Shown: positions 2,822 to 50,307, numbered from the stretch's first letter. The stretch is DNA of 64,000 nt from an uncultured Pseudomonadota bacterium (GCA_949295995.1 CASFNK010000033.1:2485-66484), one strand, 5' to 3'. Notes: generated from the sequence alone by a model not told the origin. Program-made: numbers and translations.

Positions 2822-3178
2822 ATGAAATATTTATTTTTAGAATACCCCAAATGCTCCACCTGTCAAAAGGCGCGACGCTGGTTGGAAGAACATCAGATTG
2901 AGTTCACAGCTCGCCACATTGTTGAAGCCAATCCCACAGCAGAAGAACTTGCCTTTTGGCAAATAAAAGGAACTCTCCCCTTAAAGCGATTTATAAATAC
3001 TTCGGGATTACTTTATAAATCTTTAGGCCTAAAAGACAAACTCCCTCTCCTCTCCGAAGATGAACAAAGACACCTCCTAGCCTCTAACGGCATGTTGGTT
3101 AAGCGCCCTATTTTAGTAGGTGAAGATTTTGTACTGACCGGATTTAAAGAACAAGAATGGCAAAAACATCTTCTTTAA
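2822..3178 (+). CDS. ArsC/Spx-family thioredoxin-like protein (arsenate reductase family)
   Basis: YPKCSTCQKA ... GMLVKRPILV ... GFKEQEW. RBS gagg precedes ATG 2822. Confidence 0.85.
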   Translation: MKYLFLEYPKCSTCQKARRWLEEHQIEFTARHIVEANPTAEELAFWQIKGTLPLKRFINTSGLLYKSLGLKDKLPLLSEDEQRHLLASNGMLVKRPILVGEDFVLTGFKEQEWQKHLL

Positions 3179-37073: not shown

Positions 37074-38579
37074 TTGCAAAATAATCCGTTTGCCAAACTA
37101 TTTGCCGACAAATTTCAATCCGAAGTTCTCAATCAAAGCACTTTTTATGGGGAGAAAGAAACCATAAAAAAGAGCACAATCGAAACTAAATTTATGGAAA
37201 GGTTCAACCTCTTTCTGGAACGTTGCGGCGAAAAACCGATTGATACCTCACACCATTTTATCTCCGATAAAAAATTGGCCAATTTTTGCTCAAGCCTCCG
37301 TTTTTATATGGTGCGCAATATTCAAGATTTACCTCAAGTTTCATCTGAATACAGCCGCGATAAAGACCTGATTAGCTTATTTGACAGTGCCGCCCAATAT
37401 CTCATCAACCGCTCACGTCAATATCGGTTAAGAGGGCGCAGAGTTCCCGAACTCTCTGATATATATGATTACATTACTTGGAAAGCAAATATTGGCAATT
37501 TCCCCCATCAAGTCAAAATAATTCCTTCAAAAATTCCGGCCAAACCCGGAAAAAAGAACTTATTTATCTTTGACCCCAACCGCATTCCCGAAAAAGAAAA
37601 TCTGGTCGAAAAACTATTTCATCACGATATGCAAGATATGCTCACCCCTGCCCCGCAAGAAACAAAGATTTTCTTTACGCACATGCCAACTTCTTATCCC
37701 GAAGAAATTGCCGTCGCCAATGTTTTAACCACTTTGCGCTATCCGCAAGAATACAACGAAGCAGACATGGAATTTGCCAAAATTCATTGGAGCAATTTTT
37801 TAGGAAAAAAATTAGAATATAATGAGGATAATGAAATCACCTCTGGCTATCGCTACGAGGACCAAGATTTCGTCAACAACCTCAAAGACATCAAAATTTT
37901 CGGTTACTGTGCAGGCATGGCTGACGCGCACCGTTGCCTCAAGGCTTTCAAAGAACTGGCTCTGCAAATTTATGATAAAAAAGTTGTTCAACAAGCCTTC
38001 AAAAATATTCAGGTTATGGGCTATGCTATGGGCCCTTTGGAAAAAACGAGTGATTACTCCGCTGTTTATTTTATGTCAAATGATGTTAACGATATCAGCA
38101 AACCCGAACACGTTTTCAAAACCAATTTTCCGGAACTCTATCCTCAAGTTCACATTACCCCAAAAGACTTAGAAACTGTTGATTCTAAAATTACTGAGAC
38201 ACAGGATGGTAATTTTATTGTAGCCAGCCCCATGCCGGAAAATTCATTTCAAATCATGGCTAATGGCGAGATTATTGATAAATTAAAAAACAAAAACGCC
38301 ATTCCGGCTCACTTAACATTAGATAAGGATATGAATAAAGCCAAACAAATCAAAGAAGAAAATCTGCGCAAAAAGGAATGGCGCGACGGCCACCGCCTGC
38401 AAAACACCACAGCCGCCAATTTAGGTCATCCGAATCACATTATGGCAAGGACGGTATTTACCAATATGCTGCAAGATAAAACCGGAGCGGAGCTGTTCAG
38501 CCACACCGACAGCCCCAACGCTCAATATGTACTCATGCCGGCCATCTCATACGCCCACCGCCAAAAACTAAAAGAATAA
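37074..38579 (+). CDS. Hypothetical protein, possible alpha/beta hydrolase fold (GYCAG)
   Basis: 501-aa ORF, RBS aaggag before a TTG start, own terminator. Confidence 0.65.
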   Translation: MQNNPFAKLFADKFQSEVLNQSTFYGEKETIKKSTIETKFMERFNLFLERCGEKPIDTSHHFISDKKLANFCSSLRFYMVRNIQDLPQVSSEYSRDKDLISLFDSAAQYLINRSRQYRLRGRRVPELSDIYDYITWKANIGNFPHQVKIIPSKIPAKPGKKNLFIFDPNRIPEKENLVEKLFHHDMQDMLTPAPQETKIFFTHMPTSYPEEIAVANVLTTLRYPQEYNEADMEFAKIHWSNFLGKKLEYNEDNEITSGYRYEDQDFVNNLKDIKIFGYCAGMADAHRCLKAFKELALQIYDKKVVQQAFKNIQVMGYAMGPLEKTSDYSAVYFMSNDVNDISKPEHVFKTNFPELYPQVHITPKDLETVDSKITETQDGNFIVASPMPENSFQIMANGEIIDKLKNKNAIPAHLTLDKDMNKAKQIKEENLRKKEWRDGHRLQNTTAANLGHPNHIMARTVFTNMLQDKTGAELFSHTDSPNAQYVLMPAISYAHRQKLKE

Positions 38580-46280: not shown

Positions 46281-46946
46281 TTAGCAAGCCGGACGCTTAG
46301 ACATCAAACCTTCCGAAATCTGCAGATTCGTCATAATCATACTGTCCAAGGCTTTATGATTAAGAGAGTCAACATTTTTGCCGACTTCCAAAGTTCTGCA
46401 AGAAACATAATCAGCCAACTTAATCAAATTTCCTTTAGTTTCTTTCGGCAAAGGATTATTTTCATCAGATGCCAAAGTTTTAATATAAACCCAAAGTTTC
46501 ATATTATTATCCAAAGCACTAACCAACTCGGCAGTACTGTTATTTTCTCTGGCATTAGACAAGTCAACGGCACATTTCAACAAAGAAAAAGCCTCTTCTC
46601 TGGCTAAATTATTCTTAACGGCTTCCACCAAGCCCTCAGAAATTTGCATATTAATATTAACCAGACAATCAAAATCGGTTTTAGTCATTTTCAAGCCCTT
46701 AGAAAGAATCATTCTTTCAACGAACTTAGAGAGTTTCATCAAATTAGCTTTAATATCTTCGGGAAGCAAATTCTTTGCGTTCTTTAATGAAGTTTCTATT
46801 TCGACCCAAAGCTTCAAATTGCTGTCCAAAGCCTGAATGATTTCATGTTGATTATTGCTGGTTGAAGCTTTAGCCAACAACATCGCATGATTCAGCAAAA
46901 CGACGGCTTCGTTTTCAGCATTTTTCACTTGGTTATTTGTATTCAT
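46281..46946 (-). CDS. flaF: FlaF-family flagellar regulator with two tandem FlaF domains
   Basis: Two repeats of E-A ... ALDxNxKLW ... NxLP ... KxNLxKL ... NxQISEGL. RBS gagg precedes ATG 46946. Confidence 0.8.
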   Translation of the reverse strand: MNTNNQVKNAENEAVVLLNHAMLLAKASTSNNQHEIIQALDSNLKLWVEIETSLKNAKNLLPEDIKANLMKLSKFVERMILSKGLKMTKTDFDCLVNINMQISEGLVEAVKNNLAREEAFSLLKCAVDLSNARENNSTAELVSALDNNMKLWVYIKTLASDENNPLPKETKGNLIKLADYVSCRTLEVGKNVDSLNHKALDSMIMTNLQISEGLMSKRPAC

Positions 46947-47037
46947 TTTTACTTCCTCAAAAGTTAATAGTTCATACACAATATAGATTTTAGACTAAGT
47001 TATTTAAATAATAATTCAAAGACATCCACAACTTATA

Positions 47038-47153
47038 TCCTAGGCCTGCCTAAAATGGGGAGAAAGACAGGCCTTCGGACAAAGAGAGAGAAACACCTCG
47101 TAATAAAGTTTTCTCTCAAACGCACCGGAACAAATGGGGAGAATTCCGATGCG
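47038..47153 (-). ncRNA. Candidate three-hairpin sRNA / 3'-UTR element with two UUCUCCCCAUUU loops
   Basis: Two 10-bp stems of unrelated sequence carry the same 12-nt loop core. The one non-Watson-Crick pair in each stem is G-U only on the minus strand. Confidence 0.65.
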
Positions 47154-47170
47154 AAAGGCTTTTACATAGG

Positions 47171-47935
47171 CTAGAAAGGAGACAGAATATCAATGAGCTG
47201 ACGACCATATCTCGGTTCTTGCATATCAGAAACCGTACCCCGACCGCCATAAGATACTCTGAGTTCGGCAATTTTACTCGATTCGATAGAATTATCGGAT
47301 TTAATGTCTGCGCGTCTGATAATACCTCTGACAGTGAGTTGGCGCAGTTCATAATTCACTCTGATTTCTTGGGTTCCCTCAATCACCAAATTATCATTCG
47401 GCAAAACTTGGGTAACAACAGCCGCCATCGTCATGCTGATATCTTCCGAACGGTTAATTTTACCCTCGCCTTGAACATCATGATTCGACATCACGTTAAA
47501 CAAATCGGTTACATCAACACCTTCCGGCAGATAATCATGAGCATATTTTTCATATCCGGCCAAAGCATTAATATTAACCGTATCTTCGTTATCATCACGA
47601 TACTGTTCGGTTTTGTTTTTCATAGAGGCATTATCCGAAGCCACGATATTAACCGTGATAATATCACCGACCTTAGCCGCTCTCTGGTCTTGGAAAAATC
47701 CGGAAGAGCCTTTTTTCCATAATGAGTTTGCCCCGGCATATTGCTCTGGCTTAGCTGGCATCGGCATAGAAACGGCCTGATACCCGGGAGCTTCCACCGG
47801 ATTTTGAATTGGAGCCAAATCCGGCTCTTTACCGATATTTGACAATCTTGACCAGGTATTACACCCACTCAAAGCCGTTGCCATCATCAACACGGCGGCT
47901 AATTTACAAAATTTTTGTTTTGAATTATTCATCAT
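47171..47935 (-). CDS. flgH: Flagellar L-ring protein
   Basis: Lipobox LSGC, NSLW, DQRAAKVGDIITV, QEIRVNYELR, IAELRVSYGGRG. Confidence 0.95.
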   Translation of the reverse strand: MMNNSKQKFCKLAAVLMMATALSGCNTWSRLSNIGKEPDLAPIQNPVEAPGYQAVSMPMPAKPEQYAGANSLWKKGSSGFFQDQRAAKVGDIITVNIVASDNASMKNKTEQYRDDNEDTVNINALAGYEKYAHDYLPEGVDVTDLFNVMSNHDVQGEGKINRSEDISMTMAAVVTQVLPNDNLVIEGTQEIRVNYELRQLTVRGIIRRADIKSDNSIESSKIAELRVSYGGRGTVSDMQEPRYGRQLIDILSPF

Positions 47936-47947
47936 CCAATCTCCCCT

Positions 47948-48670
47948 TTATTGGACATCTATCCTAACCGTATCGGCATCAACCACTTCACCGACAAGGA
48001 TTTTTTTGCTTTTCGTATTTTCGACTTCAATTTTATCGCCTTTTGCACCGTCTTGACGAGCTTGCCCGCGAGCGGTAATTTGCATTTTTTTGGTTTGATA
48101 AATTACCGTAATCAAGTCATTTTTATGAATAAGAATTTTCTCACCGATATCTCTGTCGGTAATAATTTTTCCGGCTTTAAGATATTTTTTAGCTTCTTTG
48201 TTTACGAGCTTATCCAAATCCACCACAAACATCGGTTTAATTCTGTTCATACGCACTTGAATGGTTTTGAGCATATCAGGCGTAATAACTTCGCCTTTAT
48301 CAATATTTTTTGCCGGCACGTAGATATCGCCCAAAACATAAAACTTACCGCTAACGGTTGTTTGGGCAAAAGGTTTCCCATCGGCAAAAATTTCCACCTT
48401 GCATGAAAACTTGTTTTGCAGTTCATCAGCTTCTAATTGTTCAACCAAAATTTTAGCGCGTTGAGCATTTTCGATTTGAAAGACAGTTTGCCCACCGAAA
48501 AATTCCAAATCAACAGCCTCCAGCCGTCCCTGCTCCACAAATTCTTTTTTAATTGCCGCTGATACTTCATCTTCGCTCACCATCAACAGATTATCTGTTG
48601 CCTCTACCGCTTTCAAATTTCCGACGGTTAAGATTAAAAATAACACACTGCAAATCAATCTAATTTTCAT
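47948..48670 (-). CDS. flgA: Flagellar P-ring chaperone
   Basis: Signal peptide, SAF-like region, GQARQDGAKGDKIEVENTKS. Lies between flgG and flgH. Confidence 0.9.
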   Translation of the reverse strand: MKIRLICSVLFLILTVGNLKAVEATDNLLMVSEDEVSAAIKKEFVEQGRLEAVDLEFFGGQTVFQIENAQRAKILVEQLEADELQNKFSCKVEIFADGKPFAQTTVSGKFYVLGDIYVPAKNIDKGEVITPDMLKTIQVRMNRIKPMFVVDLDKLVNKEAKKYLKAGKIITDRDIGEKILIHKNDLITVIYQTKKMQITARGQARQDGAKGDKIEVENTKSKKILVGEVVDADTVRIDVQ

Positions 48671-48689: not shown

Positions 48690-49478
48690 TTATCTAAGTT
48701 GCGTAATTGTACTCAACATCTGATCTGAGGTTTGAATAATCTTAGAGTTCATTTCATAAGCACGTTGTGCCGAAACCAACTCGGTAATTTCCGAAACCGC
48801 ATTCACATTAGATGTTTCAAGATATCCTTGCAGGATTGAACCAAACCCCTCGGCATCCGGATTATCGAGCACCGGCGCGCCTGATGCTTGGGTTTCCAAG
48901 AACAAGTTTTGCCCCATGGCTTCCAAACCAGCCTCGTTTACAAAGGTTGCGAGTTCGAGTTGCCCGATATTAATTTCATCGGTTTCACCGTCTTGTTTTA
49001 CCCAAACTTCTCCCGAATTATTAACATAGACTTCGGTAGCATCTTCAGGGATGGTAATTTCGGGCTGAACGACATAACCGTCATGTGTAACAATCACACC
49101 GTCACCGTTTCTTTGGAAAGCACCGTCACGGGTATAAGCCGTTCCTTTACCTTCCGGAAGCTCTACTTGAAAATATCCTCGACCTTGAATGGCCAAATCC
49201 AGAGAGTTATTGGTATTGGTCAAACCCGTACCGCCGGTAATACGATAAACGGCTGCGGTTCTGACACCGAGACCAAGCTGAATACCGGACGGTACGATTG
49301 TTTCACCGGCCGAAGAAGCAGCCCCCGGACGAACAATGTTTTGATAGAGCAAATCATTAAATTCAGCTCTGCGTTTGGTATAAGCCGTGGTGTTCATATT
49401 GGCAATATTGTTGGAAATAACGTCAACATTGGTTTGTTGAGCCAGCATTCCCGTTGCACCGATAGCTAAAGATCTCAT
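48690..49478 (-). CDS. flgG: Flagellar distal rod protein
   Basis: ISNNIANMNT, DLLYQ, YTRDG, LETSNVNAV, AQRAYEMNSK. Confidence 0.96.
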   Translation of the reverse strand: MRSLAIGATGMLAQQTNVDVISNNIANMNTTAYTKRRAEFNDLLYQNIVRPGAASSAGETIVPSGIQLGLGVRTAAVYRITGGTGLTNTNNSLDLAIQGRGYFQVELPEGKGTAYTRDGAFQRNGDGVIVTHDGYVVQPEITIPEDATEVYVNNSGEVWVKQDGETDEINIGQLELATFVNEAGLEAMGQNLFLETQASGAPVLDNPDAEGFGSILQGYLETSNVNAVSEITELVSAQRAYEMNSKIIQTSDQMLSTITQLR

Positions 49479-49495
49479 TTTCTCTCCCCTCTAAA

Positions 49496-50239
49496 TTAAG
49501 CCAGCTGAGAATAAGCTGTAATAGTGTTAGACAAACGTTCATGTTCTTCATCAATCATACTTTGCACAATTTCGTATGAACGTTGCAGTTTAATCATTCT
49601 GGTCATTTCGCTGATTGAATCGACATTGGATTTTTCCAACGCACCTTGCACAATCTGCACATCTTGCGCGCCGACAATCATGTCATTGCCATTGGTATTG
49701 GCAAACAAGGTATCACCGATTTTTTCCAGTTTTTGATTATCGGCAAATTTTACCGTCTTAATACGACCAATCGGACCATTTTCGGTCAAAACATCACCGC
49801 TTTCGCTAATGGTAATATCTTTTTCGCCCGGAGCAAAAAAGAACGGCTCATTATTTTCCGACATAACGGCATAACCCTCGCTCGTAACCAATTGTCCGTC
49901 AGCATTCAAAGTAAAATTACCTTTTTTGGTGTACATTTCTCCTTGCGGGGTTTCTACAGCAAAGAAATTATCACCCCGAACCGCCAAATCAAAAACATTT
50001 CCGGTTTCAACAATCGCCCCTTCGCTAAAGTCATGATATTGCCCGTAATCCATTGTAAAATAGACCGGAACTTTACCAAAACCTTGCGCTTGAGGCGTCT
50101 GTGTCAAATAAGATGTGAAAATTGCACCATCTTGCTTGTAACCACTGGTGTTCATATTTGCCATATTATTGGAAACAATATCCATTTGTTTCCATAAGGC
50201 CATTTGGCGTGAAAGTGCAATATATTTGGTATTATCCAT
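49496..50239 (-). CDS. flgF: Flagellar proximal rod protein
   Basis: VSNNMANMNTSGYK, TGNVFDLA, LEKSNV, QRSYE. Upstream of flgG. Confidence 0.93.
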   Translation of the reverse strand: MDNTKYIALSRQMALWKQMDIVSNNMANMNTSGYKQDGAIFTSYLTQTPQAQGFGKVPVYFTMDYGQYHDFSEGAIVETGNVFDLAVRGDNFFAVETPQGEMYTKKGNFTLNADGQLVTSEGYAVMSENNEPFFFAPGEKDITISESGDVLTENGPIGRIKTVKFADNQKLEKIGDTLFANTNGNDMIVGAQDVQIVQGALEKSNVDSISEMTRMIKLQRSYEIVQSMIDEEHERLSNTITAYSQLA

Positions 50240-50290
50240 TAATTTATTCTCCCCAATAAAAATCGGATAATTTTCTTTGCTTATAAGTAA

Positions 50291-50307
50291 TGCAAATTAC
50301 GTGCCAA
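50291..50307 (-). promoter_or_regulatory. Sigma-54 (-24/-12) promoter of flgFGAH
   Basis: Minus strand TTGGCAC-GTAAT-TTGCA matches TGGCAC-N5-TTGCW, ~50 nt upstream of flgF. Confidence 0.85.

Follow-up and report, generated by a model that had tools for sequence, protein, structure and literature searches.

In the icaR mRNA of Staphylococcus aureus, a UCCCCUG motif of the untranslated 3' region (3'-UTR) pairs with the Shine-Dalgarno (SD) sequence UAGGGGG of the same mRNA, and, as described in PMC3868564, this interaction, which can take place in trans as well as in cis, prevents ribosomes from loading and makes a substrate for RNase III. In Campylobacter jejuni, the small RNA (sRNA) CJnc230 (FlmE) is located right behind a flagellar structural gene within an RpoN-dependent operon, is co-transcribed with it and processed, and is reported to repress flagellar-related mRNAs by pairing at their ribosome-binding sites (RBSs) (PMC11187230). 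Here we analyze a stretch of 64,000 nucleotides (nt) from the genome of an uncultured Pseudomonadota bacterium (GCA_949295995.1, CASFNK010000033.1:2485-66484), referred to as the window, in which the spacer between the flagellar genes flgH and flaF holds a hairpin RNA with C-rich loops that are complementary to rare GGGG-type (G4) SDs of flagellar genes. Based on the comparisons presented below, we consider it probable that this element is an anti-SD 3'-UTR RNA that represses translation of rod genes, either in trans or in cis.

The likeness to icaR lies in a UCCCC motif of a 3'-UTR set against the SD of the same transcript, which in the window are the UCUCCCCA loops behind flgH and the flgF SD UGGGGAGA. 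The two cases come from different phyla and differ in layout: icaR is monocistronic and carries one motif, whereas the window RNA ends a four-gene operon of 3.2 kb, displays several redundant loops and, as predicted from its sequence, has extra matching sites on other operons (flgB, fliE and dnaA). Like CJnc230, the window RNA lies on the same strand as, and directly behind, a structural gene of a sigma-54-dependent flagellar operon, whereas CJnc230, as far as it is described in PMC11187230, uses a single-stranded region and targets the regulators flgM and Cj1387c rather than rod genes or its own operon. CJnc230 and the window RNA are related neither in sequence nor through Rfam.

The Escherichia coli RNAs UhpU, MotR, FliX and FlgO are Hfq-dependent enterobacterial sRNAs, and the CcsR (cuckoo) RNAs of Rhodobacter carry C/U-rich, anti-SD-like loops. 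The former are presented in PMC10578931 as UTR-derived sigma-28 sRNAs that tune flagellar synthesis post-transcriptionally, and they differ from the window RNA in the class of sigma factor and in having no C-loop hairpin array. The latter resemble it in being alphaproteobacterial tandem hairpins derived from a 3'-UTR, but they have another loop motif, and, by the account in PMC8034643, they are found behind a DUF1127 gene and serve a stress regulon; the window element gives no Rfam match to them at E up to 10. UCCC hairpin loops, several of them redundant on one RNA, let S. aureus RNAIII and RsaE (both cited in PMC3868564) pair rapidly with G-rich SDs; in contrast to the window RNA, these two regulate virulence or metabolism in Firmicutes as stand-alone RNAs without a flagellar context. 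This kind of RNA is already known, both as C-rich-loop anti-SD RNAs and as UTR-derived flagellar sRNAs, and what appears to be new is the RNA family, its private G4 code, the match to the first gene of its own operon and the dnaA site. A literature search found no paper joining an sRNA with the phrase 'downstream of flgH'.

The window genome (1,597,989 bp, 39% G+C, 97.5% complete) belongs to a family of small-genome gut bacteria. As proposed in the initial annotation, the minus strand of the flgH-flaF spacer forms three hairpins (Table 1), of which the outer two differ entirely in their stems yet have the same loop core, UUCUCCCCAUUU; the first begins 17 nt past the flgH stop codon, on the flgH strand. 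In genus g10 the loop of the middle hairpin reads UUUCCCCAA. The minimum free energy (MFE) of the minus strand is -52.0 kcal/mol (z -6.1), a stability equalled by none of 200 shuffled sequences, versus -39.2 kcal/mol (z -2.4) for the plus strand, equalled by 4 of 200. Since the loop 12-mer TTCTCCCCATTT occurs only twice on both strands of the whole genome, both copies being those in the window, the element is not a dispersed repeat such as a repetitive extragenic palindrome (REP) or a miniature inverted-repeat transposable element (MITE), and both covariance models described below, R1 and R2, find a single locus per genome. CCCC-loop hairpins located elsewhere in the genome are ordinary terminators or lie inside coding sequences. 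The annotation had also held that the hairpins are not simple terminators, and indeed nothing terminator-like was detected across 46700-47600, hairpin 3 having no U-run in this genome. Searches of 46500-47700 on both strands against Rfam 15, with E up to 10, gave no family, including cuckoo/CcsR, flg-Rhizobiales, AbcR and Csr/Rsm; the best overlapping match was Pedo-repair (12.9 bits and E 5.2, where the gathering score is 150). A weak R1 match is also seen at 2922-3026 of the window (E 0.25), where nothing notable is found.

The RNA is conserved across the sampled flagellated genera of the family. By a strict scan that required a contiguous stem of at least 8 bp, with G-U pairs allowed, and CCCC in the loop, the flgH-flaF spacer has at least one CCCC-loop hairpin in 36 of 37 flagellated family genomes and at least two in 29 of 37, and in the single exception (G006) the stem that bears the motif is interrupted; none of 10 loci outside the order has such a hairpin in the spacer. 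The window genome contains 87 CCCC-loop hairpins with stems of at least 8 bp on its two strands, corresponding to a chance expectation of ~0.006 per 230-nt spacer. Between genera the stems are unrelated while the loops keep CUCCCC(A); most genera add a second loop, UUUCCCC(A/U), and some have three or four C-loops. The covariance model R1, built from seven close sequences, recovers the element in 23 loci at E <0.05, always at the same position. In the alignment of these 23 sequences, 93% of the cells pair, versus 43-56% when the partners are slid, and compensatory changes on both sides occur in 33 of 36 pairs, values that are reached by none of 500 shuffles; because this alignment (A2) was fitted to the structure of the model, the pairing figures are inflated. 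G-U cells outnumber A-C cells 63 to 18, and in unfitted folding of whole spacers the sense strand has the better MFE in 33 of 35 cases (mean -10.7 kcal/mol), as expected from the minus-strand RNA that had been predicted. The element is a real structured, covarying RNA family on the flgH-sense strand, and, with covariation behind it, it makes a clean candidate for addition to Rfam as a new family.

A broader model, R2, searched over 151 genomes of the class, with one genome from each of 150 alphaproteobacterial families, gave clear matches only in the family of the window. Three marginal R2 matches (E 0.005-0.007) were rejected, two being aligned without CCCC loops or stems and the third, in G199, being lost on re-scoring at E 1. 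Matches to R1 of 25 bits in 4 of 9 genomes of the non-flagellated genus g8 were taken as false positives, and the one inspected (G020:C24:11324-11405) is antisense inside rpoB. In four loci (L006, L007, L011 and L014, of G010, G004, G001 and G008) insertions of 100-380 nt, palindromic and repeat-like, separate the flgH stop codon from the first hairpin; two genomes, for example, have GTAGCTAGTTGTACA here, and in G004 a unit is duplicated. These insertions look like small mobile repeats, and the RNA tolerates displacement from the stop codon.

The location of the RNA is best understood from its operon. The window contains a canonical sigma-54 promoter upstream of flgF (Table 1), in agreement with the sigma-54-driven transcription suggested earlier; a sigma-54-like promoter is present at this position in 36 of 36 readable loci, and RpoN is encoded in the genome. 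The predicted flgF leader is ~45 nt long, and we infer a single flgF-flgG-flgA-flgH transcript, a four-gene operon of 3.2 kb that ends at the RNA. Because this conserved promoter drives the four genes, we place the RNA at the 3' end of the operon and take it, in the simplest reading, to be the 3'-terminal part of the flgFGAH transcript; a separate promoter just upstream of the RNA is possible. In nearly every family genome the flgF 5' UTR also has a AAAUUAUCC box, which lies ~10-15 nt upstream of the GGGG SD and might be a protein site or form weak pairs with the region of the SD.

With open reading frames (ORFs) and start codons called crudely in the window genome (1531 ORFs), the usual SD is AAGGAG(A), and GGGGA is found upstream of only ~30 of them. 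The sequence AUUCUCCCCA in the loop matches the flgF SD UGGGGAGAAU over 10 nt. The positions given earlier for the three GGGGAGA sites at flgF (50248-50254, minus strand), flgG and flgH are exact, and a copy inside a coding sequence is located at 37149-37155. We ranked the predicted duplex energies of the two loops with the -22 to +3 region of 1530 ORFs (mean -6.3, standard deviation 2.9 kcal/mol). The top three ranks are occupied by dnaA (-18.8 kcal/mol), flgF (-17.3) and flgG (-16.4), followed among flagellar genes by fliL with an alternative start (rank 11, -15.2), flgB (rank 15, -14.5), flgH (rank 16, -14.5) and fliE (rank 18, -14.3); the identities of FliE, FliL and DnaA were confirmed by Pfam. 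Six flagellar genes among the top 18 correspond to a hypergeometric p of 1e-6 to 4e-5, assuming a total of 35-60 flagellar genes, about 20 of which were verified by family searches. Ordinary SDs are found at the hook, filament, MS-ring, switch, export and motor genes, at flgA and flaF, and at the four flagellin genes. The G4 mark is specific to rod proteins (FlgB, FliE, FlgF and FlgG), the L-ring and possibly FliL, which supports the earlier view that GGGG-type RBSs are rare in the genome and enriched in rod and ring genes. The flgB leader and SD, fliE and the best-ranked site of all, dnaA, were absent from the original list of matches.

Across the family, the flgF SD has the form (U/A)GGGGAGAAUAU, or GGGGAAAA in some genera, and is of G4 type in 35 of 35 genomes, so that the complementarity first noticed in the window holds throughout; the one outside genome that was read lacks it. 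When the loops of each genome were scored on the sites of that same genome, the background for the ranks being the set of 1530 RBS windows from the window genome, flgF had a median rank of 6 (top 5% in 34 of 35 genomes), dnaA of 4 (12 of 15), the flgB SD of 21 (14 of 16), the flgB leader of 36 (10 of 16), fliE of 105 (8 of 16) and flgC of 130 (4 of 16), while the controls flgA and flaF had median ranks of 1154 (4 of 35) and 938 (0 of 34), respectively. In two genomes an 11-nt match is formed by different sequences: ACUUCCCCAAG with its own flgF site CUUGGGGAAGU in G021, and UUCUUUUCCCC with GGGGAAAAGAA in G024. In the sub-lineage of the window both loops read UCUCCCC and the flgG site is GGGGAGA; most other genomes combine a second loop UUUCCCC with the flgG site GGGGAA, the exceptions being G005, G085 and G130. 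In locus L069 (G108), the G4 site of the flgF leader is duplicated, and a hairpin CUAUU-GGGG-AAUAG precedes a second AGGGGAAAA SD, resembling the two-site layout of the flgB leader.

The gene flgB has its own sigma-54 promoter and a G4-type SD in 27 of 30 loci. Its leader forms a hairpin with the loop (UU)GGGG(AA) and covarying stems in 26 of 30 loci, among which ~5 hairpins lie upstream of the promoter and are not to be counted. In G000 (contig C10:12109-12200, L072/L075, outside the window) the sigma-54 promoter is followed by the hairpin GGUUAUG-UUGGGGAA-CGUAACC and then by a GGGGAG SD, and the G-rich loop of this hairpin is the complement of UUCCCCAA-type loops. Comparison of the flgB leaders with Rfam gave nothing but a tRNA. 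Such a G-rich loop, set opposite C-loop hairpins, may point to contact between loops on top of SD pairing.

The dnaA site extends the comparison beyond flagellar genes. In G000 the dnaA SD (contig C2:82454-82475, L074/L105, outside the window) is AUGGGGAGAUAAA, the top-ranked loop match, and the commonest loop, AUCUCCCCAUU, is exactly complementary to the site AAUGGGGAGAU; in some genera the match extends to as much as 11-13 nt. The dnaA SD is of G4 type in 20 of 25 flagellated and in 1 of 21 non-flagellated family genomes. The DnaA tree, whose backbone is weak, implies 4 changes for each trait (flagella and G4), and only 2 independent pairs lie on starred branches, which leaves the sign test without power. 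By the approximately unbiased (AU) test, a topology that unites the 20 non-flagellated, non-G4 genomes in one clade is not rejected (p 0.40), and the association between flagella and the dnaA G4 may therefore reflect one event. An alphaproteobacterial precedent is EcpR1 of Sinorhizobium meliloti, which, according to PMC4414408, represses the mRNA of dnaA (and that of gcrA) by pairing through a conserved loop; as presented there, EcpR1 is a stand-alone stringent-response sRNA encoded behind divK-pleD, and it differs from the window RNA in its unrelated sequence and in having no flagellar link in that account. GcrA is encoded in the window, and a likely CcrM was identified only from reading its N-terminus. 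We put forward only tentatively, as a possibility with the odds against it, that the RNA couples flagellum building to the cell cycle through pairing of its loop at the dnaA RBS. If it does, a CUCCCC loop on the AAUGGGGAGAU RBS of dnaA would allow a cell that is finishing its flagellum to restrain synthesis of the replication initiator, which could serve as a riboregulatory route to a swarmer-like G1 state.

In the model that we favor, the RNA would arise at the 3' end of the flgF-flgG-flgA-flgH transcript, which is driven by sigma-54, and would present two to four hairpins, each with a (C/U)UCCCC(A/U) loop, as private anti-SD sequences. These loops may pair with the rare GGGG-type RBSs that mark a small regulon, comprising flgF, the first gene of its own operon, flgB (the SD and the GGGG-loop hairpin of the leader), flgG, fliE, flgH in some lineages, and dnaA. 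The loops should prefer GGGGAG over AAGGAG because CUCCCC gives four G-C pairs, whereas the tail of 16S rRNA needs G-U wobbles. Pairing at the SD would block binding of the 30S subunit and possibly trigger cleavage by an RNase, so that completed transcription of the rod and L-ring operon would exert negative feedback on rod-protein synthesis, by way of either a released sRNA or action within the operon mRNA. Accumulation of the RNA, its pairing with the sites, in trans or within the operon mRNA, and the repressive effect are steps that we infer. Hfq is present in the window genome.

Several observations speak against this model. The loop-SD matches are short, 7-10 nt around a conserved GGGG/CCCC core. 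The longest flgF complement is 9.0 nt for cognate and 8.7 nt for non-cognate combinations, with no excess, and 8.2 nt within clades versus 8.6 nt between clades, with no signal; these comparisons are flat because the core of loop and site is identical everywhere, and the evidence therefore consists of co-conservation and a few lineage events rather than statistical co-variation. The matches at flgG (median rank 51, top 5% in 18 of 35 genomes) and flgH (median rank 122, 13 of 35) are not universal, so that of the RBS matches claimed at the outset flgF stands throughout, while flgH stands only in part of the family. G4 is missing from flgB of G008 and from dnaA in three flagellated genera (g33, g38 and g9), and a U-tail is absent from the RNA in the window genome. 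To the same side belong the crude calling of ORFs and starts, the use of one genome as background for the cross-genome ranks, and the fitted alignment. The RNA-library runs contain only 5-7% of the words and give short contigs of 85-99% identity without strand or ends; one such contig (X1) covers 46904-47081.

Among the other explanations, the one that survives best is a protein-binding RNA, whose repeated C-rich loops would act as a sponge or an assembly platform, as CsrB does for CsrA, the GGGG sites of the mRNAs being read by another factor or unrelated. Two to four tandem hairpins with the same loop are the architecture of protein-sequestering RNAs, FlbT (2 copies) and FlaF are encoded in the genome, and the flgB leader, with its G-rich loop and G-rich SD, resembles leaders bound by dimeric translational repressors. 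We nevertheless regard this explanation as unlikely, since CsrA (PF02599) was not found in a six-frame search of the 97.5% complete genome, and the sense-strand loops are C-rich and without GGA, which does not fit a sponge of the Csr/Rsm type. The flagellin leaders, known substrates of FlbT, show ordinary SDs with neither a G4 nor a C4 motif, and we know of no protein that reads CUCCCC loops in such a setting. The exact complementarity of loop and SD over 35 genomes would moreover have to be a coincidence. The particular case of an FlbT decoy was rejected, as the flagellin and flbT leaders share no motif.

The hairpins could instead be only a structural 3' end, terminating the flgFGAH mRNA or stabilizing it as a barrier to 3' exonucleases, with no trans function for the loop. 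Such a role, which we consider quite improbable, accords with the position of the element directly after the last gene of the operon and with the T-run that follows the last C-loop hairpin in 8 of 34 spacers and makes a terminator there, but the window genome has no such run. Terminators and stabilizers need no invariant loop, whereas here the loops are conserved and the stems vary, and the rare GGGG SDs on flgF, flgB and dnaA would be left unexplained.

Alternatively, the hairpins might lie in the 5' UTR of flaF as a cis-acting leader that controls its translation or stability. The last hairpin keeps a fairly constant distance to the flaF ATG (median 96 nt, range 50-189), whereas the first hairpin lies anywhere from -2 to 377 nt from the flgH stop codon through insertions, and flaF follows flgH in 20 of 20 loci of one compared set. 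Between the RNA and flaF, though, there is a conserved promoter-like TTTAAA-17-TATATT motif; the TTTAAA and TATAT elements and an upstream GTGGATAG box recur in relatives, spacers being read by eye, and the T-run terminators of 8 of 34 spacers come ahead of this motif. The flaF RBS (GAGGAAG or AAGGAAG) is not complementary to the loops, as its low median rank among the 1530 windows indicates. A flaF leader accordingly seems very unlikely to us, and the idea that the RNA acts together with the adjacent FlaF found no support. An alternative raised earlier was an antisense transcript of the plus strand that would lure a protein binding GGA or G-rich sequence by displaying AAAUGGGGAGAA loops. Although GGA does occur in these loops and part of the hairpin folding is kept on the plus strand, the weaker plus-strand fold in the window and in nearly all spacers, the excess of G-U over A-C cells and the failure to find CsrA lead us to reject this alternative as highly improbable.

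The neighborhood of the anti-SD candidate has further features (Table 1). A GUUGUGGAUAG box, present in the window and in relatives just upstream of TTTAAA-17-TATATT, may be a regulator binding site. The FlaF protein of the window has 221 amino acids, about double the 113 positions of the Pfam profile, and flbT is not beside flaF, the two flbT copies adjoining flagellin genes on other contigs. An ORF of 324 amino acids, upstream of the flgF promoter, has no Pfam family and was found by tblastn only in close relatives among the searched loci. A protein of 119 amino acids with EF-hand calcium-binding motifs, a kind seldom met in bacteria, is encoded after a lolCDE-like ABC transporter pair.

Table 1. 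Positions in the 64,000-nt window of the RNA element, its predicted target sites and the surrounding features
Feature	Position	Strand	Basis and remarks
Complete RNA element with its three hairpins, flgH-flaF spacer	47037..47157	minus	Covariance model R1, 135.8 bits
Hairpin 1	47121..47153	minus	11-bp stem CGCAUCGGAAU/GUUCCGGUGCG, loop UCUCCCCAUUU; 12-mer core 47132-47143
Middle hairpin	47086..47117	minus	Stem GAGAGAAAACUUU/GAGGUGUUUCUCUC; CCCC loop absent in the window lineage
Hairpin 3	47042..47074	minus	10-bp stem AGGCCUGUCU/AGGCAGGCCU, loop UUCUCCCCAUUUU; 12-mer core 47053-47064
Sigma-54 promoter TGGCACGTAATTTGCA of flgF-flgG-flgA-flgH	50291..50306	minus	Only perfect match in the window
AAAUUAUCC box, flgF 5' UTR	50256-50275	minus	
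flgF SD UGGGGAGAAU	50246..50255	minus	10-nt complement of loop 1
flgF (proximal rod)	49496..50239	minus	Pfam Flg_bb_rod, LlgE_F_G_D1, Flg_bbr_C
flgG SD GGGGAGA	49483..49489	minus	
flgG (distal rod)	48690..49478	minus	Pfam
flgA (P-ring chaperone)	47948..48670	minus	Pfam ChapFlgA; ordinary RBS, internal control
flgH SD GGGGAGA	47940..47946	minus	Kept only in part of the family
flgH (L-ring)	47171..47935	minus	Pfam FlgH
GUUGUGGAUAG box	47009-47036	minus	
Promoter-like TTTAAA-17-TATATT between the RNA and flaF	46980..47008	minus	TTTAAA and TATAT recur in relatives
flaF, next gene downstream	46281..46946	minus	Pfam FlaF, 2 stretches
ORF of 324 amino acids	50422-51396	minus	
EF-hand protein of 119 amino acids	43812-44171	minus	

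Post-transcriptional control of flagellar assembly by UTR-derived RNAs has been described only lately, in Campylobacter and E. coli, and, as far as we found, none has been described for this uncultured gut lineage. If confirmed, the flgH-flaF RNA would define a regulon marked by a private variant of the SD, GGGGAG, which is readable by the ribosome and better read by a CUCCCC loop, and it would provide a natural case of an operon whose 3' end matches the RBS of its own first gene. The dnaA match, if true, would mean that assembly of the motility organelle is coupled to the initiation of replication, a hypothesis that is directly testable.

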